Origin: an uncultured bacterium
Lineage (GTDB): Bacteria > Armatimonadota > HRBIN16
DNA: 64,000 nt
Assembly: GCA_964579145.1 (NCBI GenBank)
Contig: CAZOGB010000013.1
Span: 154-64,153 of the forward strand
Direction: 5' to 3'
Under the pieces are notes generated by a model. The model saw nothing but the letters and a program-made list of their open reading frames with translations. It had not been told where the DNA came from and searched no databases. Numbering within the stretch: position 1 is the first letter of the stretch; every line of letters begins with the position of its first letter. Below, in pieces: positions 1 to 20,021 of the stretch. Made by a program: the position numbers and the translations under genes.

Positions 1-123
1 AGGGCTATAATCTGCTTCAGCGGGTTTTGTCCTGTGTGTTGCACCACCTCTCGATTGCAGGCGGAAGAAGTCAACCTTTAGGTTTTGGTGGCGCTTCAGA
101 CCTGCTTTCCGCGACAGCGTTTG

Positions 124-3100
124 TCATGGAGTTTCAATTTGACATTGCTTACCTACGGGGGCCTCCTGTAATCTTCGAAGCAGTACTTCAAGATAGCGTG
201 CAACAGGACCCCGCTGGAGGTACTGGTGAGCAAACTGGTTTCGGTAGCTTCTCAAGCATCCGTAGCAGCTTGCGTTTTCGTCGCAGCCACACTTACCCCT
301 GACTCGCTCGAAGGCAGCACCTAAACAGGATACTAGTATTCTACTCTCTTCTAACTGTGCCACGAGACCTGCCCCACCTGGCACATTGTCGTATAAGACG
401 ATGGGAAGAATGGTGTGTTGTTCCTTATAATCCACTGTTGCATTGAGATCGGTAGACGGAACCTCCAATACCTCTGCTGCACCCTCTACTATAGCACAAG
501 CCAGTGAATAAGCGAACCAAATAGGGTCAGTACTATCCTCAGGCTTGACATGGAATAGAAGCTGCAGCACGTCGGTCACGAACTCGTGTCCCAAGGAAAC
601 TTGCTCAAGTGTACCTCGGCAATCTTGACCATATGGATCTCTGTGGCTTTTTACACGGCTTCTAAAGCCAGCTCCGCATTCACGACAAACGTAGAACCCC
701 TCTCCTCTTCGCCCTTCGCACAAAACCACCATTCGCCCAGGGGAAGCCTTTTGTATGCTAATGAGAGGATAGCGGGGGTCTGGGAGAACGATAATATCTG
801 GTTGACGTTCCACCGAACCTGCGAAATATGGACGAGTTGAAAAAGCTCTTGTAGTACGCGATCTTGGTTCCTTTGGTCTCTCTCTATCGGTTATAAAGCC
901 AAAAAGCGGAACGATGTACTGACAAGTCACGAGACGATCACCACATGGTGCCTCGGGGGCACTTTGTCCTTGTTCCCACTGCATGAACACGTTGTGTTTT
1001 GCACATCGTATGTAGAACCTCCGCTGCCACTCCTTTCCGGCAACCTTCTTGAGCCCATAGGATGTCCATTCCTTCTTATTTGCAACAATCTTGCTGGTGG
1101 GAGCAAACTCGGAAATAGCTATACTGAGGTCTCTTTGGAGAAGCACTTCAAAGGCTTCTTGATTTTTTAGCGCTCTTTGCGTATCAAGTTCGACCACATC
1201 CACTGGAAAGCCATATTTAGGTATAACTGCTTTGCGAGACAGAAACGAAAGCACTTCTTCTTGGCTGATTGTGTCTGCTCGCCTTGCTGCCCATTGGGCG
1301 GTTTTATAGTCCCTCTGTTCCGCCGATACTTTTTCGAGTTTTTTGACATTTTGATAGTCACTGGATACTTCAGCTTCTGCAAGAGCAAGACGGCTTTCGT
1401 CTCCTGCGATTCTCTCCACCCACTCGTCGTTTTCCAGACCGACCTTATCAAACATGTCTGGTGGGACGATTGCACGAAGACACGTTCGTATTCCATCTTT
1501 GTTGTTTTCCAGAAAATCTTTAAAATCAACACAACCTGTTGGCTGTTCTAAGTTTCTGAACAGCTGTTCTACGGTACGGAACCGTTCTGGGAACTGCCGG
1601 AAAAAACAAGAAAGAGCTACCGCAGTGACGTGGCGAGCGATAATCTTTTCGTTCCTCAAGCTCAAAACTGGCGGACGAACTGTGCCGTTAAGCATTCGTT
1701 CTGGTTCGGCAAAGTGATACAGATCGTGAGGAGACCGACGGCAGTAGGTAATAGCAAAGCCCGGGTAGCCTCTGCGACGCCCTGCTCGCCCCACCCGCTG
1801 GGCATAGTTGAAAGCCTCAGGAGGAACATTACGCAAGAATATTGTATCCAGGTCGCCAAGATCGACACCCAACTCGAAAGTTGTGGAACAGCTCAGAACA
1901 TGGATCTTGCCTTCTTTGAATTCTCGTTGAAACTCACGGGCTTTCTCCTTGTCCAATTGGGCAGTATGTTCCTCTACGCGAAGGATTCCAGGGAGATGCT
2001 CCATGTATAGCTGACGATAGTGATTTGGCTCCAATTCGCAAACTCTTACAGGCGTAAGTTTGCCAGGGCAACGATGCCTTGGACACATATCGCGGACCGA
2101 GAGCGTGTACAGGCGTCCACAAGTATCGCACCGATAAATGGTGCTGTCATCATGTAGAAGCTGAAATCTATACCACTCAGGGTTCAGTCTCCGAGCATCC
2201 CCTACAGAGAGCAAGAGGCGGTGCTCTAGTGGACAGGATTTCTGTTCAGAGTGCATGAAGGTTTGCCAGATATGCCTCAGCACTTCCACAGCCTCATTCA
2301 ACGCTTCTTCTTCAGAAATATCTCTGACCGATCTTAGGAGCAGCTTTGCCAGAAGTTTGGCGCGCTTTCCCATCCTACCATCCCAACCACGTACACTTTG
2401 CTCTCGTCTCGGATCGCCGATGCGGAAACACGTTTGAGAAGCCTGTAGTTTTAGGTCACTCCAGCTTAGCAAGACACCACTTTCTGCCTTCAATTCCACT
2501 GCCCTATCAGATCTCATAGTATCTAACAAGAGAAACACTATATCAAAAGCCTCCTGCTCAGTAAGAGACCAAGGAGGAGAAGTAAGTAAGCGGGGTACTT
2601 CAAGCCATTCCGGCCACTTGATAAACCACCGGATCAAGCCAACCCCTTCAAGTGAGACTCGTATCTCATCGGTCAAGAATTCCCGGTATAAGTCAATCCA
2701 TGCCTCTCGGCGCAGATCGATCTCTCCTGCAGCTGGGGAGGAAGCTCGCTTTTCGCGAAGGCTTTCCTGAAGCCCTCTTGCAAGTTCCCGTAAAGACAAT
2801 CCTTCCTGCGTATAGTGCTCCAGTCTTCGTGCAGTATCAAGAATTAAGTTGCGACTGAGAATATCCCGATAGGAGTTCTCAAGGTACCATGCAAAGAAGG
2901 CTGCTTCCTGCCGACCATCAGCGAATGCCAGAACTTTTTTGCGCTCTTCTGGAAGCAGAATATAGAGAGTTGTTGCAATGACAGCGTGCGGACCATCGGT
3001 CCCATGCACCACTTCCCGCACCGGGTCACGACCAGCAGCAGTATAGCCACAAGCGCTGCATCTTGCCAGTTGATCCGCCTTGTCTTCGTCCGAAGGAGAT

Positions 3101-4851
3101 TCTTCCCTAATAACGCGTAAGAAACTGTTGTGTCCGCAGGTTGGCTCGTTTCGGCTCACTTCACCACAGCGAACACAGAGATAAAGCATCGCCTTGCTGG
3201 GGATGTCATCGTTTTCATCCTCCTCGCTTTCTTCTTCACCGTTTTCGATAGGACGCAAAAACGTCGCTCCAAAATTAGCATCGTTTGGGTCACGAACAGG
3301 TTCTTGTATTTTACCTTCCTTAAAGTTCTTTCGGGCAACAAAGTAGTGTTGCCCACACTCTCGGCACAGAGCAACTTCAAAGGCGGCGCAGTCTGCTTTC
3401 CGATCTAGAAAGACCTTCTTCTCGGGCCAATAGGATACGAAAGCCCCCTCGAGTGATCTAAGGAAGAGATGGTATCGTGCGGACAGCAGTGGAGCACCGG
3501 ATAGAGGGTCTTCAGCCATGAGAAGGATATCTACCAAGTTAGCCAGTGCTTCCACACGCTTGTGCTCGGGTAGATCTTCAAAAACTTGGTCTGCGACATT
3601 TTTAACCTCCACAGGTTTACCAGTGATGAGACGGCGAAGATTTACAGAGCGGGCATCTGCCTGGAGAATTCTTCCCACATTGCGAGAGATGCTTGATTCC
3701 ATAGGTGGTGGAACGTGAACCTTTTCCGCTATCCGGCTTATGCCGTCTAAAGATGCTCCCTTTCCCGATAAGACTTTCCTAAGAACACGATAGTCTTCGT
3801 ACCCGAGCTTCGCGGAACTCGGCTCGGGAATCGGTTCTGCTTCACCTAAAATTACATCCTTTTCGTAGAAGTTCTCACCGAATAGATCGGATGCAAACTT
3901 GGCGACAGCAGATTTGTCCTGCTCTCCCCCCATCAGAGTTGCGCTGGTGGCAATACAGCGAAAAGATTCTGTTTGCCCTCCTTCCCTAAGGCGCTGCTTG
4001 AGGCGCCGCAGTAGCATTGCCATCTCTATGCCTCGCGCTCCGCGGTACTGATGAGCCTCGTCCAAGACCAAGAATGTCCACCAACGAGCACGTCCATTGT
4101 CAAAGAGAGGGCTGTCACCAGGACGAAGCAAAAGATATTCCAACATAGAATAATTGGTCAGAAGGATATGAGGTGGTGTGCGTCGCATTTCAGTGCGTAA
4201 AACAAGCTCTCCGTGTACTACTTCACCATTCTCAACGATAGAGTGACCTTGTCTGCTCGCAAGATGGTCTTGAGCATGACGGCTTAAGTCTTTCTCATCT
4301 TCGGGCGTTTCCCCAATATACTGTGCGAACGTAAACCGAAAAGGCGATTTTGCCTCTTTGAGTCGTTTGCAGATATCTCCTAGTCGGTCACGCTGGTCAT
4401 TGGCTAAAGCATTCATCGGATATAAGACCAGCGCACGTACCCCTGGCCCCAGGTTGCCCTCCAGAAATTCCCGGTAGAGATGGAGTAAGATGGGATAAAG
4501 AAATGCCTCGGTTTTTCCGCTACCTGTTCCCGTGGCAACAACCACGTTGCATCCTCTGGCTACGCGTTGAATAGCTTCCTCCTGATGCAGGTACAAGGGT
4601 CTATCTGCTTCCAACGCTCTCAAAAAACCATCGTCTGGCCAAGTCTGCAAGATGTTCTGAAGCAAGGCACGAAGTGTTGTACCGCGCTTGAAGACTGGGG
4701 TTGCTTCAAGGTACGGACCTCTACTCAGCCGTCCAGAGTCGAGCGCTTGCTCGAACGACCTTCTGAACTGGGGGTCTTTGAAGTAAAAAGTAGTTTTTAG
4801 GTAGCGCCTGTATCTTTCCTCGACATGATGGGCAATATCGATTGGGGTCAT
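124..4851 (-). CDS. DEAD/DEAH-box SF2 helicase with C-terminal DUF1998 (MrfA/DruE/DrmAB-like), 1575 aa
   Basis: Motifs I ATGTGSGKT, Ia YPMNALANDQ, II DEAH, III TSAT, V TTFELGVDLG, VI QRVGRAGRR. Several CxxC pairs. C-terminal LGHEFVTD...YDNVPGGAG...CGCDENASCYGC is typical of DUF1998. RBS GGAGAGG upstream. Confidence 0.92.
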   Translation of the reverse strand: MTPIDIAHHVEERYRRYLKTTFYFKDPQFRRSFEQALDSGRLSRGPYLEATPVFKRGTTLRALLQNILQTWPDDGFLRALEADRPLYLHQEEAIQRVARGCNVVVATGTGSGKTEAFLYPILLHLYREFLEGNLGPGVRALVLYPMNALANDQRDRLGDICKRLKEAKSPFRFTFAQYIGETPEDEKDLSRHAQDHLASRQGHSIVENGEVVHGELVLRTEMRRTPPHILLTNYSMLEYLLLRPGDSPLFDNGRARWWTFLVLDEAHQYRGARGIEMAMLLRRLKQRLREGGQTESFRCIATSATLMGGEQDKSAVAKFASDLFGENFYEKDVILGEAEPIPEPSSAKLGYEDYRVLRKVLSGKGASLDGISRIAEKVHVPPPMESSISRNVGRILQADARSVNLRRLITGKPVEVKNVADQVFEDLPEHKRVEALANLVDILLMAEDPLSGAPLLSARYHLFLRSLEGAFVSYWPEKKVFLDRKADCAAFEVALCRECGQHYFVARKNFKEGKIQEPVRDPNDANFGATFLRPIENGEEESEEDENDDIPSKAMLYLCVRCGEVSRNEPTCGHNSFLRVIREESPSDEDKADQLARCSACGYTAAGRDPVREVVHGTDGPHAVIATTLYILLPEERKKVLAFADGRQEAAFFAWYLENSYRDILSRNLILDTARRLEHYTQEGLSLRELARGLQESLREKRASSPAAGEIDLRREAWIDLYREFLTDEIRVSLEGVGLIRWFIKWPEWLEVPRLLTSPPWSLTEQEAFDIVFLLLDTMRSDRAVELKAESGVLLSWSDLKLQASQTCFRIGDPRREQSVRGWDGRMGKRAKLLAKLLLRSVRDISEEEALNEAVEVLRHIWQTFMHSEQKSCPLEHRLLLSVGDARRLNPEWYRFQLLHDDSTIYRCDTCGRLYTLSVRDMCPRHRCPGKLTPVRVCELEPNHYRQLYMEHLPGILRVEEHTAQLDKEKAREFQREFKEGKIHVLSCSTTFELGVDLGDLDTIFLRNVPPEAFNYAQRVGRAGRRRGYPGFAITYCRRSPHDLYHFAEPERMLNGTVRPPVLSLRNEKIIARHVTAVALSCFFRQFPERFRTVEQLFRNLEQPTGCVDFKDFLENNKDGIRTCLRAIVPPDMFDKVGLENDEWVERIAGDESRLALAEAEVSSDYQNVKKLEKVSAEQRDYKTAQWAARRADTISQEEVLSFLSRKAVIPKYGFPVDVVELDTQRALKNQEAFEVLLQRDLSIAISEFAPTSKIVANKKEWTSYGLKKVAGKEWQRRFYIRCAKHNVFMQWEQGQSAPEAPCGDRLVTCQYIVPLFGFITDRERPKEPRSRTTRAFSTRPYFAGSVERQPDIIVLPDPRYPLISIQKASPGRMVVLCEGRRGEGFYVCRECGAGFRSRVKSHRDPYGQDCRGTLEQVSLGHEFVTDVLQLLFHVKPEDSTDPIWFAYSLACAIVEGAAEVLEVPSTDLNATVDYKEQHTILPIVLYDNVPGGAGLVAQLEESRILVSCLGAAFERVRGKCGCDENASCYGCLRSYRNQFAHQYLQRGPVARYLEVLLRRLQEAPVGKQCQIETP

Positions 4852-4863
4852 AGTATCCTCTCC

Positions 4864-7254
4864 CTAGCGTAGACTATATAATTCCGTCTTATGCTTTTCA
4901 ATCAGATGTTTCCACCTTGCCTCATTTGTTTCCCGCACTGTATTAGCGCACAGCTCGCACCTATAGACAATAGGGAGTTGGCGCATAACCTTTTCCCGGA
5001 TTTCGTTGACATCATCGATGGTACGAAAGCTGACTGTTGCCCCCCAATGACAGGTATCGATGTGTTGCTGGATTTTGCTGGTCGGGCTTGCAGGGTCGCC
5101 TGATTCTGCATAAAAATCGCAGTAAGCACACTTGTAAATCTCATGGGGGAGTCCGTAGATAAAAGAACGTAGCTCTTGGTAAGAGTTCAACGGAGCGAAA
5201 AACTCATTCAGGTGTGCAGTTTGTATGTGACGATATATATCAGCCTCTCCAAGAGAGGCAAAGTTACACTTATTGCAGACAGCTTTAACTACCAGTTCGC
5301 CGAGGATGCCCTCATAATTTTTTTGTTCCTGAGAAATCCACACCTTGAGAGGAAACTTTCCGAGACAGTTCAATTCCTCTGCTCCACTGAAATCGCGAAG
5401 CGGTATAGAGACTTCCTTTTCACCTACCCCTACATCGTAATAGCGAGAATTCTCTTGCTTGAACCCTATACCTATCTTGTCTATCCATCGTTTTTGGGGT
5501 AACCGCAGCCATATTGCAGTGTTTGATGTCGGGAGCATCATGTCTCTTGAGAAGTCCAGGGGCTTGTCTTTCCACTGCGATGGCTTGCTATTCTCTTCTG
5601 CGACACCCCACCAAACTCTGTCCACCAGGAGCGCCAGAGTCACCTGGGGACCATTTTCGTAGCCAATTCGCCAACGAGTCATATCGTAATCGGGTTTGGC
5701 CGGTACTGTTAGAATAATTCTTCCATCTTCTTGATCAACCGACATATCTCGTAAGTTGTCAAGTGGGTATAAGTTGACATCCTTCTCACAGGAAAGTTGA
5801 ATACGAATCGCTTTATGTCCACCTGCAAAAGGGAGGGGAGATGTCGTTTGTGTTTCAATCTGCTGAAGCCCTAGTAGAAATCTAAAGTCCAAGCTCTCCA
5901 CGAGGTCCTCGTTCTCATCGTAGAACCTGATGAAATACCATCCTCCTCTTCTATCCAGGATTTCGGAAGGTAATTCCTGCTCTGTCCGACTAGGATCGGG
6001 GCTGAACTGTGTGCGCCATTTTCCTCGGCCGTGTCCCTCCTCTCCGAGAACTATTATTCTGATTTCTTTCCATATCTCCTTTTCTGTGGCACGAATCGTT
6101 GGGAGATTACTGAAAAGTGGTCCTACACCTTCGCTTGCATCTTCAATTTTATGCCCGATCAAGGTAAAGCAAGCTGACCTCATGGGAAGCTGCAAAACTT
6201 TCCCGCCAGAGCGGAACACGATCCCGTACGTGGAGTTCTTCTGTATATCGAAGAAATGAGCACGGTATCCTTCAATGGCAACGAATTCAGGTGCCACTGG
6301 TGGCGGTCCTGACATAGTTTCATCCCGCTCCCAAGCGTCCCCTGCAACCACAAGATATGAACCCAGCGTCGCCAACCTAACACGCCTGCCATCCCTCAAA
6401 TCTTGACCACTCAGTTTAAACAATAGATAATCCTCAGTATCAAACGCGATACTATGGGTGTGAAGCAAGCCGTTCTCTGTCCATTGCACAAGAACCTGAT
6501 CGCGGATGGAATTAAGAATCCATCGGTTCTCGCGGTCCGGGTCAGCAAAAAGGAATGCCTCTCCCTGGCGAATCTCGAGGTCGGAGCACTTCAGCATTTT
6601 CGTAGGCAATTCTATCCCAATAAACCACATCCGCTCTTTCTTCCAACAAACTACTTCTGGCTTTAGGAAATTACGCAGGGTGAACTGCGTAGAGGCTTCC
6701 CCACCGTAGGTGGTACCTCGTGGTCTGCCCCCCCTATTTATAGGGTCCCGTCGTCGCTTTGCTACCGAGACCGATAAATGGCCTTGCATTACACGCTGCG
6801 ATACAGCAACCTCTTGCTGTTGAACATCCTCCGCCCCTGATGACGCCCCGTTCTGTAGCATTATCGACCGAGCATCTACTACTGAGGATGATGCCTGATT
6901 CTCTTGCCGGCGTTCATCCGTTGGTTCTATCTGTCCCAAGCCCTGTGGTTCGTCTGAACACTCGAGATCTCCCGACTTCGTAGTTTCCGGTTCCTGTACA
7001 GCTACTGACAGGGTTTCTCGGAAGACCGTTGGGGTGCTCTCTTCAACAACATCGGGTTGGATACTCGCTGTTGCTACTCGTGTTTGCCCGTCTACGAGCT
7101 CGATGCCTTGCGCTTCATCTGCGTGGTGGGGCTGTGCCGCCTCAGCTGCTTCTGCTTCGTGCGATTGCTTACGCTTGCGTGCCACTAAGTAGACTGCGGT
7201 AGCGGTTGCGGCTAATACGAGAAAGAAAGCGCAGAACACGGTTACTGACCTCAT
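4864..7254 (-). CDS. Hypothetical membrane-anchored protein with three C-terminal C2H2 zinc fingers (about 796 aa)
   Basis: Long ORF 12 nt upstream of the helicase. N-terminal TM VFCAFFLVLAATATAVYLVA followed by RKRK. C-terminal CNKC-x12-H-x4-H, CAYC-x18-H-x4-H, CELC-x13-H-x4-H. ATG 7254 lies 8 nt after GAGGAG and is preferred over GTG 7263. Confidence 0.85.
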   Translation of the reverse strand: MRSVTVFCAFFLVLAATATAVYLVARKRKQSHEAEAAEAAQPHHADEAQGIELVDGQTRVATASIQPDVVEESTPTVFRETLSVAVQEPETTKSGDLECSDEPQGLGQIEPTDERRQENQASSSVVDARSIMLQNGASSGAEDVQQQEVAVSQRVMQGHLSVSVAKRRRDPINRGGRPRGTTYGGEASTQFTLRNFLKPEVVCWKKERMWFIGIELPTKMLKCSDLEIRQGEAFLFADPDRENRWILNSIRDQVLVQWTENGLLHTHSIAFDTEDYLLFKLSGQDLRDGRRVRLATLGSYLVVAGDAWERDETMSGPPPVAPEFVAIEGYRAHFFDIQKNSTYGIVFRSGGKVLQLPMRSACFTLIGHKIEDASEGVGPLFSNLPTIRATEKEIWKEIRIIVLGEEGHGRGKWRTQFSPDPSRTEQELPSEILDRRGGWYFIRFYDENEDLVESLDFRFLLGLQQIETQTTSPLPFAGGHKAIRIQLSCEKDVNLYPLDNLRDMSVDQEDGRIILTVPAKPDYDMTRWRIGYENGPQVTLALLVDRVWWGVAEENSKPSQWKDKPLDFSRDMMLPTSNTAIWLRLPQKRWIDKIGIGFKQENSRYYDVGVGEKEVSIPLRDFSGAEELNCLGKFPLKVWISQEQKNYEGILGELVVKAVCNKCNFASLGEADIYRHIQTAHLNEFFAPLNSYQELRSFIYGLPHEIYKCAYCDFYAESGDPASPTSKIQQHIDTCHWGATVSFRTIDDVNEIREKVMRQLPIVYRCELCANTVRETNEARWKHLIEKHKTELYSLR

Positions 7255-7337
7255 ATTATGCACTCCTCTACTTCCCGAACCGGAACCCGTCTAGGCGGTA
7301 GCAGGCAGACTGTGCGTCTTGCATGCTTCTACTTTTA

Positions 7338-7374
7338 ATCTTAGCAGTACCATTAAAGTTTTGGCAACTTGCCA
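7338..7374 (-). promoter_or_regulatory. Putative sigma70 promoter of the helicase operon (TTGCCA-N18-TAAGAT), with the -35 inside the palindrome TGGCAA-C-TTGCCA
   Basis: Minus-strand TTGCCA 7367-7362 and TAAGAT 7343-7338; perfect inverted hexamer 7362-7374. Confidence 0.45.
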
Positions 7375-7486
7375 CTTTTCGATTCTCCATCTTACACCCG
7401 CCTATCCTTTCTTCCCAGCGAAAGCAGGAGAATACCCGTCCACTCCCGAAAGTGCTTACGGGAAACGTGCGCAAAAGGAGAGCGGG

Positions 7487-8305
7487 ATGGAAATCGGCGT
7501 TATCAACAGTTTAACCAACGGTGGGCGATGCTTTGACCACGTGGCGCAGTTCGGCTTGCATGTGTGTCAGCTGGCGTGCTGGGATACCCGCCTGGCGACG
7601 CGCGAGGTGGCGCAGACGGTGGTGGAAGAGTCGGCAAGGGCGGGAGTGCGTGTGTGTGCCGTGTGGGCTGGCTGGAGTGGTCCTGCAGAATGGAACTTCA
7701 CGCGCGGACCGGTGACGCTAGGCTTGGTGCCGCCTGAATACCGTGCCCAGCGTGTGGAAGAGCTGAAACGGTGGGCGGATTTCGCCCGGTGGATTGGTGC
7801 GCCTGCTATCATCACCCACTGCGGCTTCATCCCCGAAAACATGACCGACCCCGAATATCCGCCGGTGGTGGAGGCGATTCGCGAAGTGGCTCAGTATTGC
7901 GCGGAGCGGGGCATCGGCTTCTGGTTTGAGACCGGGCAGGAGACGCCAGTGGTGCTTCTGCGAACGATCCAGCGTGTGGGAACGGGCAATCTGGGCATCA
8001 ACCTGGACCCCGCCAACCTTATCCTGTACGGCAAGGGCAACCCGATAGACGCGCTGGACGTCATCGGTCAATATGTGCGCAATGTGCACGTGAAAGACGG
8101 ACTGTATCCTACCGACGGCGACCATCTGGGGCGTGAGGTGCCAGTTGGGCAGGGCAGGGTACGCTTTCCAGAGTTTCTGAAGCGGCTCAAAGAGATAGGC
8201 TTTGACGGTGAGCTGATTATCGAGCGCGAAATCAGCGGCGAACAGCAGATTCGAGACATCCGTCAGGCGGTTAACGACCTGCAGAGGTGGCTTGCCGAAG
8301 TGTAA
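7487..8305 (+). CDS. Sugar phosphate isomerase/epimerase (xylose isomerase-like TIM barrel, AP endonuclease 2 family)
   Basis: WFETGQE, INLDPANL, VHVKDG, IIERE metal-binding pattern. Start ATG 7487 follows AGGAG; the ORF-track extension to 7319 is not supported. Confidence 0.88.
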   Translation: MEIGVINSLTNGGRCFDHVAQFGLHVCQLACWDTRLATREVAQTVVEESARAGVRVCAVWAGWSGPAEWNFTRGPVTLGLVPPEYRAQRVEELKRWADFARWIGAPAIITHCGFIPENMTDPEYPPVVEAIREVAQYCAERGIGFWFETGQETPVVLLRTIQRVGTGNLGINLDPANLILYGKGNPIDALDVIGQYVRNVHVKDGLYPTDGDHLGREVPVGQGRVRFPEFLKRLKEIGFDGELIIEREISGEQQIRDIRQAVNDLQRWLAEV

Positions 8306-8320
8306 ATGGAGGGAATGAGG

Positions 8321-9760
8321 ATGAAAGACCTGGTGCTTTTAGCCATAGACACTGCGAAGGGGAAGGGAGCAACCTACGCCGATGCACGCATCGTGCGTCT
8401 GCGCCGGCAGAACATCGCCTGCGAAGACCAGCGCGTGAGCCTGCTGGCTGACACCGAAGACTGGGGAATTGGCGTGCGGGTGATTGCCGATGGAGCGTGG
8501 GGCTTTGCGGGCACGTCGGTGCTGACGCGCGAGGAGGTTCAGCGTGTCGCCGCCGAGGCGGTAGCCATTGCCAAAGCCAGCGCATCCGCCCGACGCAAGC
8601 CGGTACAGCTCGCGCCCGAGCCGGTGCACCACATGAGCTTCCGCTCGGCGTGCGAGGTTGACCCCTTCACCGTGCCGATTGACCAGAAAGTGGGACTGCT
8701 CCTGCAGATTAACGAGGCATTGTTAAAGCACGAGGGCATCCGCAAGGCGAACAGCTTTATGCTCTTCAAGCGCGAGGAGCGATGGTTTGCCAGCACCGAA
8801 GGCTCGTTGATGGACAGCATCATCTACACTACCGCCACGGGGTATACCGCTACCGCCGTGGGCGAAAGAGACGCCCGAAGCCGCACCTATGCGCCTCCGC
8901 CCCGCACCATGGGCTACGAAAACATCCGCGCCGACGACCTACTTGCCAACACGGAGCGCGTGGCGCAACAGGCGCTGGAGCACCTGAAAGCCCCTGAAGT
9001 GGACGATATGGTGACCGACCTGGTGCTGGACCCGCTGAACCTTGCGCTGACCATGCACGAGTCGGTGGGGCATCCGAGCGAGCTCGACCGCGCGTTGGGC
9101 TACGAGGAGTCGCTGGCGGGACGCAGTTTCGCTACGCCCGACAAACTGCACAAACTGCAGTATGGTTCGCCAATCGTGAACTTCGTGGCGGATAACACCC
9201 TGCCCGGTGGACTGGCGACCCAGGGCTTTGACGACGACGGCGTAGAATGCCAGCGATGGTACATCGTGAAGGACGGCATCTTCTGCGGCTACAGCACCAG
9301 TCGCGAGGTTGCCGCCGAAATCGGGATGGCACGCAGTACCGGCTCCACCCGTGCCGACAGCTGGGGGAGTATTCCTATTGTGCGCCAGCCAAATCTTTCA
9401 CTGATGCCGGGCAAAGAGCCTCTCTCCCCCGAGGAGCTGATTGCCGATACGAAGGATGGCATCTACATAGAAGGCATGGGCAGTTTCTCCATTGACCAGA
9501 TGCGCCAGAACTTTCAGTTCGGTGGAGATGCCTTCTGGCGTATCAAGAACGGCAAACTGGTGCACATGCTGAAGAACGTCACCTATCACAGCATCACCGA
9601 GAAGTTCTGGAACTCGTGCGATGCCATCTGCGATGAACGGTTCTGGGTTCCCAACGGCGTGCTGAACTGCGGGAAGGGCGACCCCATGCAGATTGCGCAG
9701 ATGACGCACGGCGCGGCGACCGCCCGCTTCCGCCAGGTACAGGTGCGGCGGGCGAGGTGA
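8321..9760 (+). CDS. tldD: TldD/PmbA family metalloprotease (TldD type)
   Basis: YADAR N-terminus, HESVGH (HExxxH), FDDDG, NCGKG motif. Start ATG 8321 lies 8 nt after GGAGG. Confidence 0.9.
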   Translation: MKDLVLLAIDTAKGKGATYADARIVRLRRQNIACEDQRVSLLADTEDWGIGVRVIADGAWGFAGTSVLTREEVQRVAAEAVAIAKASASARRKPVQLAPEPVHHMSFRSACEVDPFTVPIDQKVGLLLQINEALLKHEGIRKANSFMLFKREERWFASTEGSLMDSIIYTTATGYTATAVGERDARSRTYAPPPRTMGYENIRADDLLANTERVAQQALEHLKAPEVDDMVTDLVLDPLNLALTMHESVGHPSELDRALGYEESLAGRSFATPDKLHKLQYGSPIVNFVADNTLPGGLATQGFDDDGVECQRWYIVKDGIFCGYSTSREVAAEIGMARSTGSTRADSWGSIPIVRQPNLSLMPGKEPLSPEELIADTKDGIYIEGMGSFSIDQMRQNFQFGGDAFWRIKNGKLVHMLKNVTYHSITEKFWNSCDAICDERFWVPNGVLNCGKGDPMQIAQMTHGAATARFRQVQVRRAR

Positions 9761-9779: not shown

Positions 9780-11801
9780 CTACCAGTTAATCGGGTAGAC
9801 GCTGATGTCGGTTAAACAGCCGACCAGTGTCCAGAAGCCGCCGTTCAAGAAGTCGCCCAGTATCAGCCCGAAGAAGAAGGGCAGGGACTGACGGTACAGC
9901 TTCATCCCGCCGAAGTGCAGCACCACCCACTTGATCGCCCACGCGATAATGAAGGGTAGCCACACCCACTGCATGGTAAAGGTCTGGGCGATAGCATAGC
10001 CGACGGGATGGAAGGGGAACCACGATAACTGCATACGCAGGACAGTCAGAATCACAGTAATCAGGAAGCCGAAGGCGACAGCAATCGTGCCGTTGACGTC
10101 GGCTTTGACGGGTGTCTTGATTGCCTCTGCCAGCGCGTCGAAGGGGGTACGCCCCATATAGGTGCGCCACGGTTCAGCCTTGGCGCCCGCTCCGAACTGA
10201 TACCATATCGCCAACGCAATCACGAAGGAGACGATAAACCCAAGCGTCACCGCGCTCATCATGGCGATAGCCAGCTGGCGCAGGTTGGCGCGCAGTTCCC
10301 CGCCCATCTTGAAACCGTCCAGCTGGTGAGGCATGGAGATACAGCGCAGGTCAAAGTTCGCCAGAGGCGCGCGCATGTACGCCAGAATGGTCAGGTCCTG
10401 CACGCGGAACCCCGTCGTGCCAAAGGTGGTGGTCATGAGCTGATACACATCCACGCTGGGACCGAACAACCAGGCGTTGCCGCTTTCGGCACGGGTGCGT
10501 GTCGCCGCCATCATGTACGATAACGCCAGCAGAACCAGTATCGCCGCTGCGCCCCAGCTCATGCCCGCCACCACACAGAAAGCGATACTGCCCAGTAACC
10601 CCGCAAAGAAGCCAATAACCGCCCAGCGGTAGGACATCGGCTCCATGCTGTCGTCCCCTTTGCCCTGCCAGGCGGTTTGCCACACCTCGCGCAGGTGCTT
10701 TCGCGCCAGATACAGGCTGATGCCCGCCAGCCCCAGAAAGGCTCCCGCGCCCTGATGCCCTATCCAAGGATACACGCTCTGCGCCGCGCCCCCTGCCGCA
10801 GCCGTCCAGCCCATCGCCGCTCCCAGCACTAGCTCCGCTTTGGTGACGAGGTAGAAAAACCAGCAGCTGAACGTGACCTCTAAGGACAGCAGATAAGCGA
10901 TACCGATGACGAACGGGTAGAACGACATCGGCATATAGCCGATAGCGTTCCAAGGAGGTGTGGTGACCCACTGTGCGATGTCCAGCCGGCTGGTGGCACG
11001 CAGAGGGATTTCGGGAACCGCCGGGTAGTTCAGATGGATGGTGTTCAGCGTGCCCAGCGCAAACGGGATGGCAAAGCCCAGCCACAACAGACGGTTGCTG
11101 AACAGCGACTGCGGTTCGCGAATCAACGCCAGCGGGAGGGCAACGGTGGGGAAGGTCAATCGCTCGCGTTCCACCCATTGCCGCCGCATAATCGCCATCA
11201 GGCACAGGCAGGTGAAGGTGTAGACGGTCATGAACAGCGTCCACGCGCCAATCTGCTTCCACCACAGCCCGAGCGGTACCGAGGCGTTGCCCTGATAGAA
11301 GTATTTGAGGGCAAACTCGTTCTTCTGCGCCAGCCAGTCGGGGATATAGCGGTGGAACAGCTCCGCCCAGCGGTTTTCAGGGGAGGCATAGTAGAACGCC
11401 GCGGTGACAGTAGGAACAATAAAGTGCAGAGCGCCCGACGAGGAAAGTACCGTTGCCACCGTCATCATCACGTAGATAACCAGCAGTTCCTGTGCGCTCA
11501 GCGCCCAGCGTGCCGCCGCCCGTCGCAACAGCATATTCATCACCACCAGCGCCACCAGTGCGTTGAACGCTCCCACTGGAATAGAGGTGTTCGCCAGTGC
11601 GGTGTGTCCACGCTGTCCCAGCACCAGCTCCGCCCAGTGAATCCACAGGTCTACCAGGATCACACAGATAATGCCGATAATCCATGCACGAAGGCTCAAC
11701 GCACGCCCGGGTATGCTCACTGCGGCAGACACCGGCTCCGCAACGCGCGCCTCCCTCACGCTGGTCGAGTAAGGCACCGTCCATTTGCGCCAGAAAAGCA
11801 T
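9780..11801 (-). CDS. Polytopic membrane protein, DUF6785/DUF6784-like putative transporter (673 aa)
   Basis: About 16 hydrophobic segments; motifs RRQWVERERLTFP and FPFHPVGYA. Clear paralog of 42996-44981. Confidence 0.8.
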   Translation of the reverse strand: MLFWRKWTVPYSTSVREARVAEPVSAAVSIPGRALSLRAWIIGIICVILVDLWIHWAELVLGQRGHTALANTSIPVGAFNALVALVVMNMLLRRAAARWALSAQELLVIYVMMTVATVLSSSGALHFIVPTVTAAFYYASPENRWAELFHRYIPDWLAQKNEFALKYFYQGNASVPLGLWWKQIGAWTLFMTVYTFTCLCLMAIMRRQWVERERLTFPTVALPLALIREPQSLFSNRLLWLGFAIPFALGTLNTIHLNYPAVPEIPLRATSRLDIAQWVTTPPWNAIGYMPMSFYPFVIGIAYLLSLEVTFSCWFFYLVTKAELVLGAAMGWTAAAGGAAQSVYPWIGHQGAGAFLGLAGISLYLARKHLREVWQTAWQGKGDDSMEPMSYRWAVIGFFAGLLGSIAFCVVAGMSWGAAAILVLLALSYMMAATRTRAESGNAWLFGPSVDVYQLMTTTFGTTGFRVQDLTILAYMRAPLANFDLRCISMPHQLDGFKMGGELRANLRQLAIAMMSAVTLGFIVSFVIALAIWYQFGAGAKAEPWRTYMGRTPFDALAEAIKTPVKADVNGTIAVAFGFLITVILTVLRMQLSWFPFHPVGYAIAQTFTMQWVWLPFIIAWAIKWVVLHFGGMKLYRQSLPFFFGLILGDFLNGGFWTLVGCLTDISVYPINW

Positions 11802-11975: not shown

Positions 11976-13343
11976 ATGAGTATCATTCCACAGCGGGCAT
12001 CTGTGGATGGCAACTTCTGGGTGTTCTTTAACGAGGATAAGACGCAGGCGATGCTGCTGGTCGCCCCACCGCAGGGGGATGGCAACCCGGTGCGCGTGGC
12101 GGATGTCGTCAAGGCGCTCGAGGAGATGGGTGTCGCTTACGGCATCAACGAACAGGCTATCCGGGATGCCATCGAACGGGCAACGAACACGGCAACCAAA
12201 GTACAGGCGGTGGTAGCAGAGGGTGTTGTGCCCGTTCACGGCACGGATGCAAAGGTCAATTACCGTCTGCCGGAGGAGGCTGTTGTGCGTCCTCTGCCTC
12301 TGTTGCCCGATGGCAGTATAGACTATCTGCAGATAGACTCCGCCCGTTACATTCAGGCTGGTCAGCTGATTGCCACGGTGGTACCAGCTAACCACGGGCG
12401 CCCGGGGCGCACCGTAACTTTTCCCCCTCAGACCGTACACCAGCGACCGGGTAGAGACGCAAACCTTCGAGCGGGAGAGGGCGTCATCGCCTCCGACGAT
12501 AACCTGCAGTTCACCGCCGAAAAATCGGGATACGTATACCTCTCTGGGGACAAACTGTGTGTCCTGCCTGCACAACCGGTGAAGGGCGACCTGCAGGGAG
12601 CACAGCAGTTCCCACATGCGCTGGTGCTGACCGGCAGCGTTCTGCCCGGGGCACAGGTGCGCGTGTATGGTGATGCTGCCATCGGTGGGCGATGCGAGGG
12701 GGCACTGTTGAATGTGCGGGGAGCCTGCTACCTGCACGGCGGAGCGCAGAGTTCGGACATCGCGGCGGATGGAAACATCCTGCTGAGGGCAAGCGTGACC
12801 GACTGTACCCTGAGCACACGGCGCCGCGTGATTGCGCTAAGAGAGGATGTGCAGATTGTGGGCGGGCGCGTAGTGGCATTTGAAGGAGTAGAGGCGTATA
12901 CTATAGGTACGCCTTCGTGGGTTCCGACCGAAGTGGTGGCAGGCGTGGACACCCTGGGCGACGAGCGGCTGTTTGAGATTGCAGAGGAGATACGTCAGTG
13001 TGAAGATAATATACAGAAAATCAACACCGCCTTGCGCCCGTTCGCCTCGGTCACCGCGGAGGTCACTTCGCCGGAGAAAAAGGAGGCGGTTCAACGGCTG
13101 ATTGCACACCGTCGCCGTCTGGAAGCGCGGCTGAAGGAGCTTCAACACGAGAAACGCACCATCACCATTCAGGTCAACGCGCCTATCCGGGCAGAGGTCG
13201 TGGTGATGGGGACAGTATACCCGGGTGTGAAGGTAACCATCGGCAAACACAGCTATCTGGTGGAAGCAGAAATGCAGGCGGTACGCTTCTTTGTAGCGCG
13301 CGGCGAGTCGCGTGTGCAGGTCAGGCCATTGAACAAACTATAG
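11976..13343 (+). CDS. fapA: FapA family (DUF342) protein
   Basis: N-terminal AMLLVAPPQGDG/EEMGVAYGINE region, PGRTVT...GEGV, beta-helix repeats, C-terminal coiled coil and GTVYPGVKVTIG. RBS GGAGG. Confidence 0.85.
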   Translation: MSIIPQRASVDGNFWVFFNEDKTQAMLLVAPPQGDGNPVRVADVVKALEEMGVAYGINEQAIRDAIERATNTATKVQAVVAEGVVPVHGTDAKVNYRLPEEAVVRPLPLLPDGSIDYLQIDSARYIQAGQLIATVVPANHGRPGRTVTFPPQTVHQRPGRDANLRAGEGVIASDDNLQFTAEKSGYVYLSGDKLCVLPAQPVKGDLQGAQQFPHALVLTGSVLPGAQVRVYGDAAIGGRCEGALLNVRGACYLHGGAQSSDIAADGNILLRASVTDCTLSTRRRVIALREDVQIVGGRVVAFEGVEAYTIGTPSWVPTEVVAGVDTLGDERLFEIAEEIRQCEDNIQKINTALRPFASVTAEVTSPEKKEAVQRLIAHRRRLEARLKELQHEKRTITIQVNAPIRAEVVVMGTVYPGVKVTIGKHSYLVEAEMQAVRFFVARGESRVQVRPLNKL

Positions 13344-16762: not shown

Positions 16763-17473
16763 CTACAACCCCGGACAGGAGTTATCCGATGACCAGGGAT
16801 AGTAAATGTACAGGTATCTACCCGTGCAGGGATTAGTGGAACGGTCATTCCACCAGCCCTCCAGCACGTTGCGGGATACGTACTTGGCATGAGTATCAAT
16901 GAAAGTGACGTTCATGCCATCCGTATGACGGAAAGCCCAATGGCTTGGACCCCATGTTGCATTGTAGCCAAGCCCCTGATCATTATCGTCCGCGTCGTAG
17001 ACCTCGAAGAACCAGATACGCTCCGCAGGACGCTTGATCAGATCGAGCATGAACTCACTGACCGTGTTGTCCGATTTGATGTAGATTACGGCACCATACA
17101 CGTTAATGCCGTAACTCTTGTAGTACCACTCGGGAACCCAATCATATGGGTCGGTATTCCAAGGTTTCCTGGGCACTGCATGGCTTGGGCAGCGAAAGAT
17201 GTCTTCATTCTTCACATACGGCAGAATAAACCCAGACCATGTATTTGGAAAATGGGTAAACTGCCAGTATGTGTCCCAGATAGACATGCCATCATAGTCT
17301 TCTACATACATTCGCGCTCCCGTGCCAATCTGCTTCATGTTCGAGAGGCACGAGGTCTGCCTTGCTTTTTCCCTGGCTTGAGCGAAGACAGGGAACAGTA
17401 TCGCCGCCAGTATCGCGATAATCGCGATAACCACCAGCAGCTCAATCAGAGTGAACCCACGCTTGCTTTGCAT
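16763..17473 (-). CDS. Prepilin-type N-terminal cleavage/methylation protein, DUF1559 / H-X9-DG family
   Basis: G|[42 protein letters not shown]; C-terminal H-X9-DT variant ([14 protein letters not shown]). Confidence 0.92.
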
Positions 17474-19085: not shown

Positions 19086-20021
19086 GTGAAGCGTGGTTTT
19101 ACGCTCATTGAGCTGCTGGTGGTCATCGCGATAATCGCGATACTGGCAGCCATCCTGTTCCCCGTGTTCGCGCAGGCACGGGAGAAAGCTCGCCAAGCTT
19201 CCTGCCTCAGCAACTTCAAGCAGGTGGGCACGGGCGTGATGATGTACGTGCAGGACTACGACGAGACCTTCCCCTACAACCGCTTCATCGGTCCCGGAGG
19301 GGCTACCTGGTCTACCTGGAAATACGCTATCCTGCCGTACGTCAAGAATCTGCAGGTGTATGAGTGCCCAAACGCTCGGGCGCAGATAGCGCGTATGCTC
19401 GGCGACAACGAGCGGGCATGGCGCGGATCCAAGATGGATGAGACGTGGGCGCACTGTCATCCCGAATCGCCGTGGGTAAGAAGTGACCCCTACTGCGACA
19501 TCCCACGCAGTCAGAACCTGTGGTTCCCGCGAGGATACACGGTAAACGGCGCGGTGTTTAACCTCTCGGCGTGGATTGGCGGGGCGAACAATCCGCGCAA
19601 GCTGGCTGACCTCGACGCTCCCGCCGAGACCATCTGGCTGCAGGATGGGCGCAACTACGAGCCGGACACCGGTCCCTGGGCAGTCGTGCGATGCTGGTGC
19701 GCGCCTCCGGGAGACCCGCTCGGCGGAGACGTGCCCGATTCCAGCCCGAACAACCCCTGTGGCTTCGTGCGGCAGTATGGATGGCTGATTAACCATCTGA
19801 AGGGCACGCACTTCATTTTCGCGGATGGACACGTGAAGTGGACGCGCGTGCACAGCGCCATCGCCAGCAACCTGTGGAAATGGGCTTGCTTCCAGCGGCC
19901 GGGCGAACGCACCTTCTGGGGAGACCCGCGCGACTTCCCCACTGACGGCAGCTGCCGACAGCCGGACCCGGATACCTGCCGCAGCGTTGCCAGTGCGCTG
20001 GCCGCTTACGAATACCGCTAA
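19086..20021 (+). CDS. Prepilin-type DUF1559 / H-X9-DG protein, Cys-rich (311 aa)
   Basis: G|[10 protein letters not shown]-terminus; [16 protein letters not shown]; 10 Cys; RBS AGGAGG. Confidence 0.92.

Follow-up and report, generated by a model that had tools for sequence, protein, structure and literature searches.

Does the low-GC end of an uncultured armatimonadotal contig encode a phage defense system of the Druantia kind, and if so, what is the protein that accompanies its helicase? The question is raised by a 64,000-nt stretch of an HRBIN16 genome (GenBank assembly GCA_964579145.1, contig CAZOGB010000013.1, positions 154 to 64,153 of the forward strand), hereafter the window, in which two adjacent minus-strand genes encode a superfamily 2 (SF2) helicase and a second large protein, here called the partner. 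A first-pass annotation, made from the sequence and its open reading frames (ORFs), had read the two genes as a linked operon and a candidate Druantia-like system with an atypical partner. Our analysis leads us to favor, with moderate confidence, the reading that the pair is a horizontally acquired two-gene Druantia-like anti-phage module, composed of a nuclease-free DruE-clade helicase and a dedicated sensor or adaptor. As such, it is probably an unrecognized variant of a known bacterial immune system.

The helicase is organized as a RecA1/DEAD domain, a long insertion, a RecA2/Helicase_C core, and a C-terminal MZB/DUF1998 zinc domain (Table 1), and its DEAD, Helicase_C, and MZB matches all exceed the curated Pfam cut-offs. 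Intact, conserved copies of motifs I, Ia, II (DEAH), III, and VI are present, with the Walker A sequence ATGTGSGKT at amino acids (aa) 106-114 and DEAH at aa 264-267, and relatives keep the CxxC pairs. The SF2 motifs, cysteine pairs, and DUF1998 C terminus read by the first-pass annotation thus hold up. Four cysteines of the MZB domain (1521, 1523, 1529, and 1532) are 100% conserved in the helicase clade described below. The insertion carries further clusters (C496/C499 with C598/C601, C559/C562/C572, and C908/C911/C923/C928), which are kept in 96-100% of the clade and are predicted to form zinc-binding modules. DruE and ARMADA helicases carry BrxA-like, zinc beta-barrel, and MarR-like insertions (PMC12458937), to which the insertion seen here would correspond in position.

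Among the PADLOC models, DruE1 gave the best single hidden Markov model match to the helicase at 623 bits (E=3.9e-187), followed by DruE3 at 541 bits (E=2e-162), and the other YprA-type models scored 86 (DpdJ), 82 (BrxH), and 61 bits (DrmA). The DruE1 match is partial, falling in three stretches. For calibration, the Escherichia coli type III-A DruE matched DruE3 from end to end at 2180 bits and DruE1 at 574, while on DruE1 a haloarchaeal helicase, the true type I member in this comparison, scored 1566 bits end to end and an ARMADA-like Thermus helicase ~280 bits. Because calibration members score 1566-2180 bits end to end, the window helicase lies outside the modeled DruE clades; judged by these profiles, it is DruE-like, outlying every one of them, and about as distant from type I as III-A is. 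In the DruE3 profile, the final ~375 positions (~1680 to 2055, its nuclease part) are unmatched, and the helicase terminates 42 aa past the MZB domain. It therefore has no nuclease domain, having either lost one or never had one. Its closest solved sequence relatives are the DruE-like 9tu7 (2108 aa; 244 bits) and 9wae (171 bits), after which comes MrfA/YprA (6znp) at 90 bits.

The position of the helicase was also examined in a neighbor-joining tree of 35 helicases over 1523 well-occupied columns, a small, distance-based tree whose Druantia references were type I, III-A, and other DruE-like helicases. The 25 helicases that occur with this partner form one clade on a long stem (100/100 bootstraps) and are 45-72% identical to the window helicase and at most 30% identical to type I and III-A DruE proteins; the window helicase itself shares 26% identity with E. 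coli DruE. Sister to this clade (98/100) is a 1559-aa nuclease-free helicase from a Clostridium butyricum megaplasmid, 30% identical. Next come type I (Pseudomonas putida, annotated with DruA), the haloarchaeal DruE1-type helicase, E. coli III-A, and two DruE-like helicases, and ARMADA-type references fall outside the Druantia group. With this small reference set, the tree lends tentative support to placing the partner-associated helicases, by sequence, as a clade of their own within Druantia, and the possibility raised in the first-pass annotation that the helicase groups with MrfA-type repair helicases is not borne out either here or by the bit scores above.

Two observations were made alongside the tree. 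Actinobacterial plasmid matches considered as III-B references proved to be ARMADA systems, of type I or II. Among cultured organisms, the closest relative of the helicase, on C. butyricum plasmid pNPD4_2 (L045:4783-12668), lies beside a 1069-aa hypothetical protein that has no PADLOC match and showed no similarity to the DruH profile or to the window partner family by single-sequence hhalign, a comparison of low sensitivity. This protein may be yet another undescribed DruE partner.

We then asked whether the two genes travel together. A scan of one genome per species across 185,579 species yielded 44 loci, every one from metagenome-assembled genomes (MAGs); the bacterial loci span at least 15 phyla, and one locus comes from a Methanophagales archaeon. 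In 39/44 loci, or in 39 of the 41 that are informative, the next gene downstream on the same strand encodes a helicase homologue. Of the five exceptions, three are on contigs that run on for less than 520 nt, one is a 49-aa fragment, and one has no helicase at all. The genes overlap or lie no more than ~30 nt apart in these related loci. The pair is thus conserved together, and the lack of such conservation, which the first-pass annotation had named as a refuting outcome, was not seen. All-against-all clustering of the 448 flanking ORFs of the 44 loci recovered two conserved clusters only, partner and helicase, with no third conserved gene; the pair is a self-contained two-gene module. The two proteins also codiverge, as identities to the window proteins correlate between partner core and helicase (r=0.89, n=22). 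Of the two, the partner is the quicker to diverge, its mean identity being 36% vs 61% for the helicase in the same set (n=22), and DruH is likewise reported to diverge faster than DruE (PMC13192584).

In Druantia types I, II, and IV (DruABCDE, DruMFGE, and DruL-DruF-DruE), DruE is accompanied by additional Dru proteins, and homologues of DruA-D, DruF, DruG, DruL, and DruM are absent from the window and not conserved in any of the 44 related loci. ARMADA, DISARM, and Dpd share the YprA-family core and MZB domain with the window helicase, and ARMADA also has zinc-rich insertions. Unlike these systems, the window pair comes without a BrxHII-like helicase, a PglX/DrmMI methyltransferase, or a PLD or Vsr nuclease. 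DISARM splits its helicase into DrmA and DrmB (DUF1998) and adds DrmC and a methyltransferase, whereas here helicase and MZB are fused and DrmA matches at no more than 61 bits. No methyltransferase is conserved with the pair across the 44 loci.

Several of the related loci deserve mention individually. The Methanophagales MAG (L026:3325-10428) holds a complete pair whose helicase is 60% identical to that of the window, which, barring a binning error, implies interdomain transfer. The helicase is split into at least two ORFs in L042:52-5863, L032:800-7718, L005, L006, L018, and L036, and the partner is also broken in L042 and L032; these are decaying copies or products of assembly or frameshift errors. 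In a Thermoflexus sp. MAG (L001:570-17110), a DrmMI/PglX-like methyltransferase (1412 aa) and a second YprA helicase (1678 aa) lie directly upstream on the same strand. This second helicase groups with ARMADA-type references, placing two YprA-centered systems in tandem.

What, then, is the partner? It has no PADLOC match, no Pfam or NCBIfam match above threshold, and no relative in the PDB by sequence or profile. An AlphaFold2 model built from a 120-sequence alignment (mean per-residue confidence [pLDDT] 82, and >90 at 194-796) consists of a helix (2-38), a disordered stretch (40-193), an all-beta region (200-657), and three beta-beta-alpha units (658-796). Together with conserved metal ligands, this agrees with the transmembrane (TM) anchor, disordered linker, beta-rich core, and three C2H2 fingers that the first-pass annotation had proposed. 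A TM helix occurs within the first 60 aa in 84/100 full-length homologues, preceded by a tail of median length 6 residues in these 84. The 15 residues after the helix contain on average 4.8 Lys or Arg, vs 0.4 before it, and the excess lies after the helix in 82/84. Because of this cluster, the positive-inside rule predicts an N-out/C-in topology with the bulk of the protein in the cytoplasm. The acidic linker that follows, ~150 aa in this protein, is 42-256 aa long across the family (median, 171), and linkers do not align between homologues.

Shortly before the folded core lies the motif RGGRPRG, for which the family consensus is P-x-K-R-G-G-R-P-R-G; at each of R174-R179, 32-37 of the 45 zinc-finger-type members have the identical residue, and a looser GGRPR-like pattern occurs in 84/100 homologues. 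We describe it as putatively AT-hook-like from its likeness to the GRP core. The core itself is modeled as about five tandem immunoglobulin (Ig)-like beta-sandwich domains, a count read from the DSSP string. Its best Foldseek matches in the PDB are titin I65-I70 (E=5.7e-8), S-layer proteins, and complement MG domains, and those in BFVD are likewise tandem Ig chains, in tail and adhesin-like proteins. The template-modeling scores of these matches are low (~0.1), as expected because the chain is flexible and multi-domain. The three C-terminal units are predicted, from sequence and model, to be C2H2-type zinc fingers with ligands C660/C663/H676/H681, C709/C712/H731/H736, and C766/C769/H783/H788, a spacing that fits C-x2-C...H-x3-5-H. 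All 12 ligands are kept in 42-45 of the 45 zinc-finger-type homologues. The middle finger is C2H2 here and C2HC in most homologues, where the fourth ligand is Cys.

The partner belongs to a large family. A word-indexed search found 277 homologues. When 1.84 billion cluster representatives were searched exhaustively by profile, 1088 clusters (50% identity) matched at E<=1e-3, or 790 at E<=1e-30. Publicly, these proteins are named "hypothetical protein" or "ribosomal protein S9," and the latter name reached ~800-aa membrane proteins through the genuine Ribosomal_S9 domain (PF00380, E=3e-16 at aa 688-787 of homologue P0049) that forms the C terminus of many members. Among 120 members, the C terminus is of zinc-finger type in 45, S9-like in 57, and neither in 18, and two types never occur together; at least 7 of the 18 end in a common domain of ~130 aa that is basic and helical. 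The N terminus can be exchanged as well, as rare members of ~2180 aa carry an SbcC/Rad50-like ABC ATPase and a long coiled coil (AAA_23/AAA_27) in place of the TM helix and linker. One such protein belongs to a three-gene variant (L055:707-13088, Logan SRR23310591), in which the gene for a 382-aa SbcD/Mre11-like Metallophos protein comes first, that for a 2177-aa fusion of N-terminal SbcC/Rad50-like ATPase, coiled coil, Ig-repeat core, and three zinc fingers second, and that for a 1568-aa DruE-like helicase 54% identical to that of the window last. By its domain content, this variant adds a nuclease to the system. Since modules at both termini swap among members, the Ig-repeat core is, by sequence comparison, the constant part of the family, with interchangeable ends. 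It is also the best-conserved part, with many invariant Trp, Phe, and Gly residues.

The closest points of comparison for a two-gene DruE system are the type III Druantias. In type III-A (E. coli DruH-DruE; 9tu7), the helicase family and gene order are those of the window pair. E. coli DruE works as a dimer, loading on single-stranded DNA (ssDNA) or 3' tails and unwinding 3' to 5', with DruH as its likely sensor or regulator, and this mechanism offers, by analogy, the best available model for the window helicase. E. coli DruE, however, is 2104 aa long with C-terminal PLD-type nuclease domains that the window helicase lacks, and its DruH is a soluble YjiT-family protein of a system usually found beside the Zorya II membrane complex, whereas the window partner is itself predicted to be membrane-bound. 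Bell et al. 2025 (PMC12458937) recognized a "Druantia type III-like / III-B" branch whose helicases are mostly nuclease-free. In Mycobacterium smegmatis, a DruH and a 1667-aa DruE, neither with a canonical nuclease domain, protect against phage and block phage DNA circularization and replication (PMC13316683); DruH by itself is toxic, and the trigger is a minor tail protein of the phage (PMC13316683). This nuclease-free type III (MSMEG_1253-1254) resembles the window pair in having two genes with the partner first, a helicase of ~1550-1670 aa that combines DEAD, Helicase_C, and MZB domains but lacks a nuclease domain, and a large, beta-rich, fast-evolving partner. The window partner differs in that it is not DruH by any sequence test, is membrane-anchored, and has zinc fingers. 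Because the nuclease-free III-B branch has been recognized, the helicase side of the pair may already be known and covered by it, but the partner family is not described there.

How might such a pair act? The defense function, the contacts made by the partner's domains, and the trigger are what we infer; the 3'-to-5' polarity is taken by analogy from E. coli DruE and the fate of phage DNA from the M. smegmatis pair. If the locus is a Druantia-like module, the partner would be held in the cytoplasmic membrane by its single N-terminal helix, with nearly all of the protein in the cytoplasm, and its long acidic linker would let the head scan the sub-membrane zone where phage DNA and ejected proteins arrive. 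This head would comprise the RGGRPRG minor-groove-type motif, roughly five Ig-like domains, and three zinc fingers. The Ig-like core would be the likeliest surface for binding or regulating the helicase, for binding a phage protein, or for both, while the fingers and RGGRPRG may engage nucleic acid, an S9-like or helical domain replacing the fingers in relatives. On infection, the partner would release the helicase or load it onto ssDNA-containing or 3'-tailed phage DNA. The helicase could then translocate 3' to 5' and unwind, so that phage DNA circularization and replication would be blocked. Host nucleases might finish the phage DNA, and in the three-gene variant the SbcCD-like pair would do so. 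The first-pass annotation had likewise imagined a membrane-tethered DNA sensor recruiting the helicase: the predicted anchor, cytoplasmic orientation, and nucleic-acid-binding-type modules agree with it, and sensing and recruitment belong to the conditional scheme given here.

A number of points weigh against a Druantia-like immune module. All 44 loci come from MAGs, with no cultured host among partner-family members. In related loci, the neighbors include some restriction-modification (RM), type IIG, or methyltransferase genes, and the ARMADA-like genes described above adjoin one pair, but the association with defense islands is only modest, and the neighbors visible in the window, encoding a TIM-barrel isomerase-like protein and TldD, are of the housekeeping kind. 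The defense-island colocalization that the first-pass annotation proposed to look for is thus seen in part. A nuclease-free system needs either interference by the helicase alone or a host nuclease. The AT-hook reading rests on a 7-residue motif within a low-confidence region of the model, and Pfam C2H2 models score the fingers below threshold. The Ig-like repeats are no argument for homology with DruH because the fold is too common. The window, finally, stops 123 nt past the helicase, leaving room for a further gene in this copy.

A different division of labor within the same defense framework is conceivable, though we consider it rather unlikely: the partner might chiefly sense phage proteins, its Ig-like domains reading ejected tail, tape-measure, or baseplate proteins at the membrane, with the fingers, S9 domain, and GRP motif only positioning the complex on DNA or RNA. 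The M. smegmatis trigger, a minor tail protein (PMC13316683), is consistent with this, as are the weak association of E. coli DruH with a baseplate protein and the positive selection in its Ig-like domains (PMC13192584). The membrane anchor would keep the partner close to the incoming tail tip and ejected proteins, and the partner diverges much faster than the helicase. Conservation within the partner points the other way, however. The Ig-like core is its best-conserved part, which fits a constant helicase-binding scaffold better than a fast-adapting surface, and the variable parts are modules of nucleic-acid-binding type.

It is improbable that the locus is an ordinary Druantia type III whose partner is a DruH too divergent for detection by sequence. 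The partner matches none of the PADLOC DruH models at E<=0.1, whereas E. coli DruH matches ten, the best at 2539 bits. In precomputed Pfam annotations, PF27205 and PF27201 are absent from 120 listed partner homologues, while at least one is present in 40/40 DruH-family matches and both in 38. Our local Pfam copy lacks PF27205, PF27201, and PF27116 (YjiV_N), so that E. coli DruH itself gives 0 matches and the local scan says nothing on these families. BLASTP of the partner against DruH returned nothing, hhalign of the partner profile (120 sequences) against the DruH profile (26 sequences) gave a probability of 1% (E=0.054), and no DruH structure surfaced among the Foldseek PDB matches of the partner (fold library entries to 2026-04-08). 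A canonical DruH (YjiT/STY4851 family), which the first-pass annotation had named as the outcome that would make this a known system, is rejected on PADLOC, precomputed Pfam, BLASTP, and hhalign results, and membership of the partner in the DruH family is not supported at the sequence level; any structural relationship would be very remote. Gene order and two-gene make-up do match those of type III, and DruH too outpaces its helicase in divergence. In cryo-EM, DruH is a soluble protein of ~1100 aa with a globular or helical N-domain, a run of Ig-like subdomains, and a C-domain forming an ssDNA/ATP pocket. The Ig-like repeats are the sole feature that it has in common with the partner, which differs in its length of 796 aa, its TM anchor, disordered linker, and zinc fingers, and its lack of helical end domains.

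There is likewise only a slim chance that the pair belongs to a larger system whose other genes, such as one for a methyltransferase or nuclease, lie to the left of the window. The window continues for only 123 nt past the helicase, and GC has not yet risen at that edge. This 3' flank has no terminator-like fold and folds no better than shuffled sequence (z=-0.48). The three-gene relative with its SbcD-like gene and the Thermoflexus locus with its upstream methyltransferase and helicase could be read in the same sense. Against this, partner and helicase are the only clusters conserved across the 44 loci, and what follows the helicase varies between loci and is often encoded on the opposite strand. 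As reported by the first-pass annotation, no methylase or nuclease gene is present in the visible part of the operon side.

MrfA/YprA repair helicases are ~750 aa long, have no large insertions, and occur alone or with the MrfB exonuclease, whereas no MrfB-like gene is present with the window pair. Very improbable is a housekeeping repair or replication-restart helicase (MrfA/YprA/Hrq1 type) with a membrane-bound accessory factor, for although the SF2 core and MZB domain are common to MrfA (90 bits to 6znp), nuclease and methylase genes are lacking, and the visible neighbors are housekeeping genes, the window helicase is twice the size of MrfA with Cys-rich insertions typical of defense YprA helicases (PMC12458937), it scores 623 bits on DruE1 and falls within the Druantia group of the tree, its distribution is patchy (44 loci in 185,579 species genomes, spread over an archaeon and at least 15 phyla), its GC does not match that of the flank, some copies are fragmented, and RM and ARMADA-like genes occur as neighbors. 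Zorya (ZorAB-ZorE) and SNIPE, which provide immunity at the inner membrane where phage DNA enters, would be alike only in the logic proposed for the Druantia-like module and have no relation to the window pair in sequence or architecture.

We found no published description of the partner family, its strict link to a distinct DruE clade, its membrane anchoring, or its module swaps, and the family is not covered by the PADLOC models (release 2.0.0). On sequence evidence, then, the helicase appears to be a new member of a known family, while the partner family, the linkage, the anchoring, and the swaps appear to be new. Work of 2025-2026 presents DruE as the constant engine of Druantia, with the subtype-specific partner setting the trigger, and among the Druantia partners only DruH has been studied so far. 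Current defense annotation would give these loci at best as orphan DruE because the partner is outside the PADLOC models and publicly "hypothetical" or wrongly "ribosomal protein S9." The architecture raises the questions of where in the cell Druantia senses infection and how DruE works without a nuclease, and the module swaps (TM anchor for SbcC-like ATPase with an SbcD-like gene; fingers for S9-like domain) are natural experiments on what the sensor reads. Since the system is confined almost entirely to uncultured lineages, one of them archaeal, it widens the range over which Druantia-like immunity is known. More tentatively, and with more doubt than belief, we suggest that the partner family could define a separate, widespread Druantia type in which an Ig-repeat scaffold couples a nuclease-free DruE to interchangeable positioning or sensing modules, the membrane form surveilling DNA entry and stopping phage by helicase alone.

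Table 1. Features of the two-gene locus, with window coordinates and strand
Feature	Coordinates	Strand	Details
Low-GC island	1..7300	.	Composition profiles; left boundary beyond window
Helicase gene	124..4851	-	1575 aa; DruE-type YprA/MrfA-family SF2 helicase, no nuclease domain
MZB/DUF1998 zinc domain	253..501	-	aa 1451-1533; Pfam PF09369, E=3.6e-9
RecA2/Helicase_C core	1774..1986	-	aa 956-1026; Pfam PF00271, E=1.1e-10; motif VI QRVGRAGRR
Insertion between RecA1 and RecA2 core	1987..3930	-	aa 308-955; conserved Cys clusters
RecA1/DEAD domain	3931..4587	-	aa 89-307; Pfam PF00270, E=3.1e-21
Intergenic spacer	4852..4863	-	12 nt GGAGAGGATACT; holds helicase ribosome-binding site GGAGAGG
Partner gene	4864..7254	-	796 aa; ORF call; predicted membrane-anchored Ig-repeat protein with zinc fingers, undescribed family
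Three predicted zinc fingers	4867..5283	-	aa 658-796; beta-beta-alpha in model, pLDDT >80
Predicted Ig-like core	5290..6666	-	aa ~197-655; pLDDT >90, all-beta; Foldseek
RGGRPRG motif	6715..6735	-	aa 174-180; shortly before folded core; putatively AT-hook-like
Acidic disordered linker	6745..7167	-	aa ~30-170; pLDDT 30-44; 23 D/E vs 7 K/R
Predicted transmembrane helix	7180..7245	-	aa ~4-25, then RKRK; hydropathy 2.39; only TM-like segment
Upstream intergenic region	7255..7483	-	Common to divergent plus-strand gene; Shine-Dalgarno GAGGAG 7263-7268

The gene boundaries agree with those first proposed. The minus-strand partner ORF would extend over 4864..7263 if an alternative GTG at 7263 were the start; the ATG at 7254 is likelier because GAGGAG sits 8 nt upstream of it and the GTG overlaps this same Shine-Dalgarno sequence, and public gene callers give 796 aa as well. 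At the junction, the partner stop codon TAG (4864-4866) is followed by the 12-nt spacer and the helicase ATG, consistent with the linked pair, short gap, and ribosome-binding site of the first-pass annotation. Its low GC relative to the flank was also confirmed: GC is 0.47-0.50 over 1-6000 and ~0.60 from 7500 on, an island 10 points under its flank. The remaining ~57 kb of the window range from 0.57 to 0.64, with a single dip to 0.54 at 16-18 kb. No tRNA was found in the 64-kb window, and around the island there is no integrase and there are no meaningful direct or inverted repeats. One promoter-like site lies upstream of the partner (7367 to 7338), no more than chance expects, and the promoter and terminator consensus scans as a whole stayed at chance level.

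The genes beyond the island are not related to defense. A xylose-isomerase-like TIM-barrel protein (7484-8305) and TldD (8306-9760) adjoin it, followed by a large DUF6785/DUF6784 membrane protein (9780-11801, minus strand; E=1e-151) and a FapA-type flagellar-assembly-like protein (11976-13343, plus strand). Farther along, two paralogues at 16763-17473 (minus strand) and 19086-20021 (plus strand) have an identical prepilin-type N terminus, and the first of them sits within the only other GC dip of the window. NCBIfam scans of eight large window proteins gave no lead on the host lineage; as a hint to it, proteins with prepilin-type N termini abound in PVC-group and Armatimonadota genomes.

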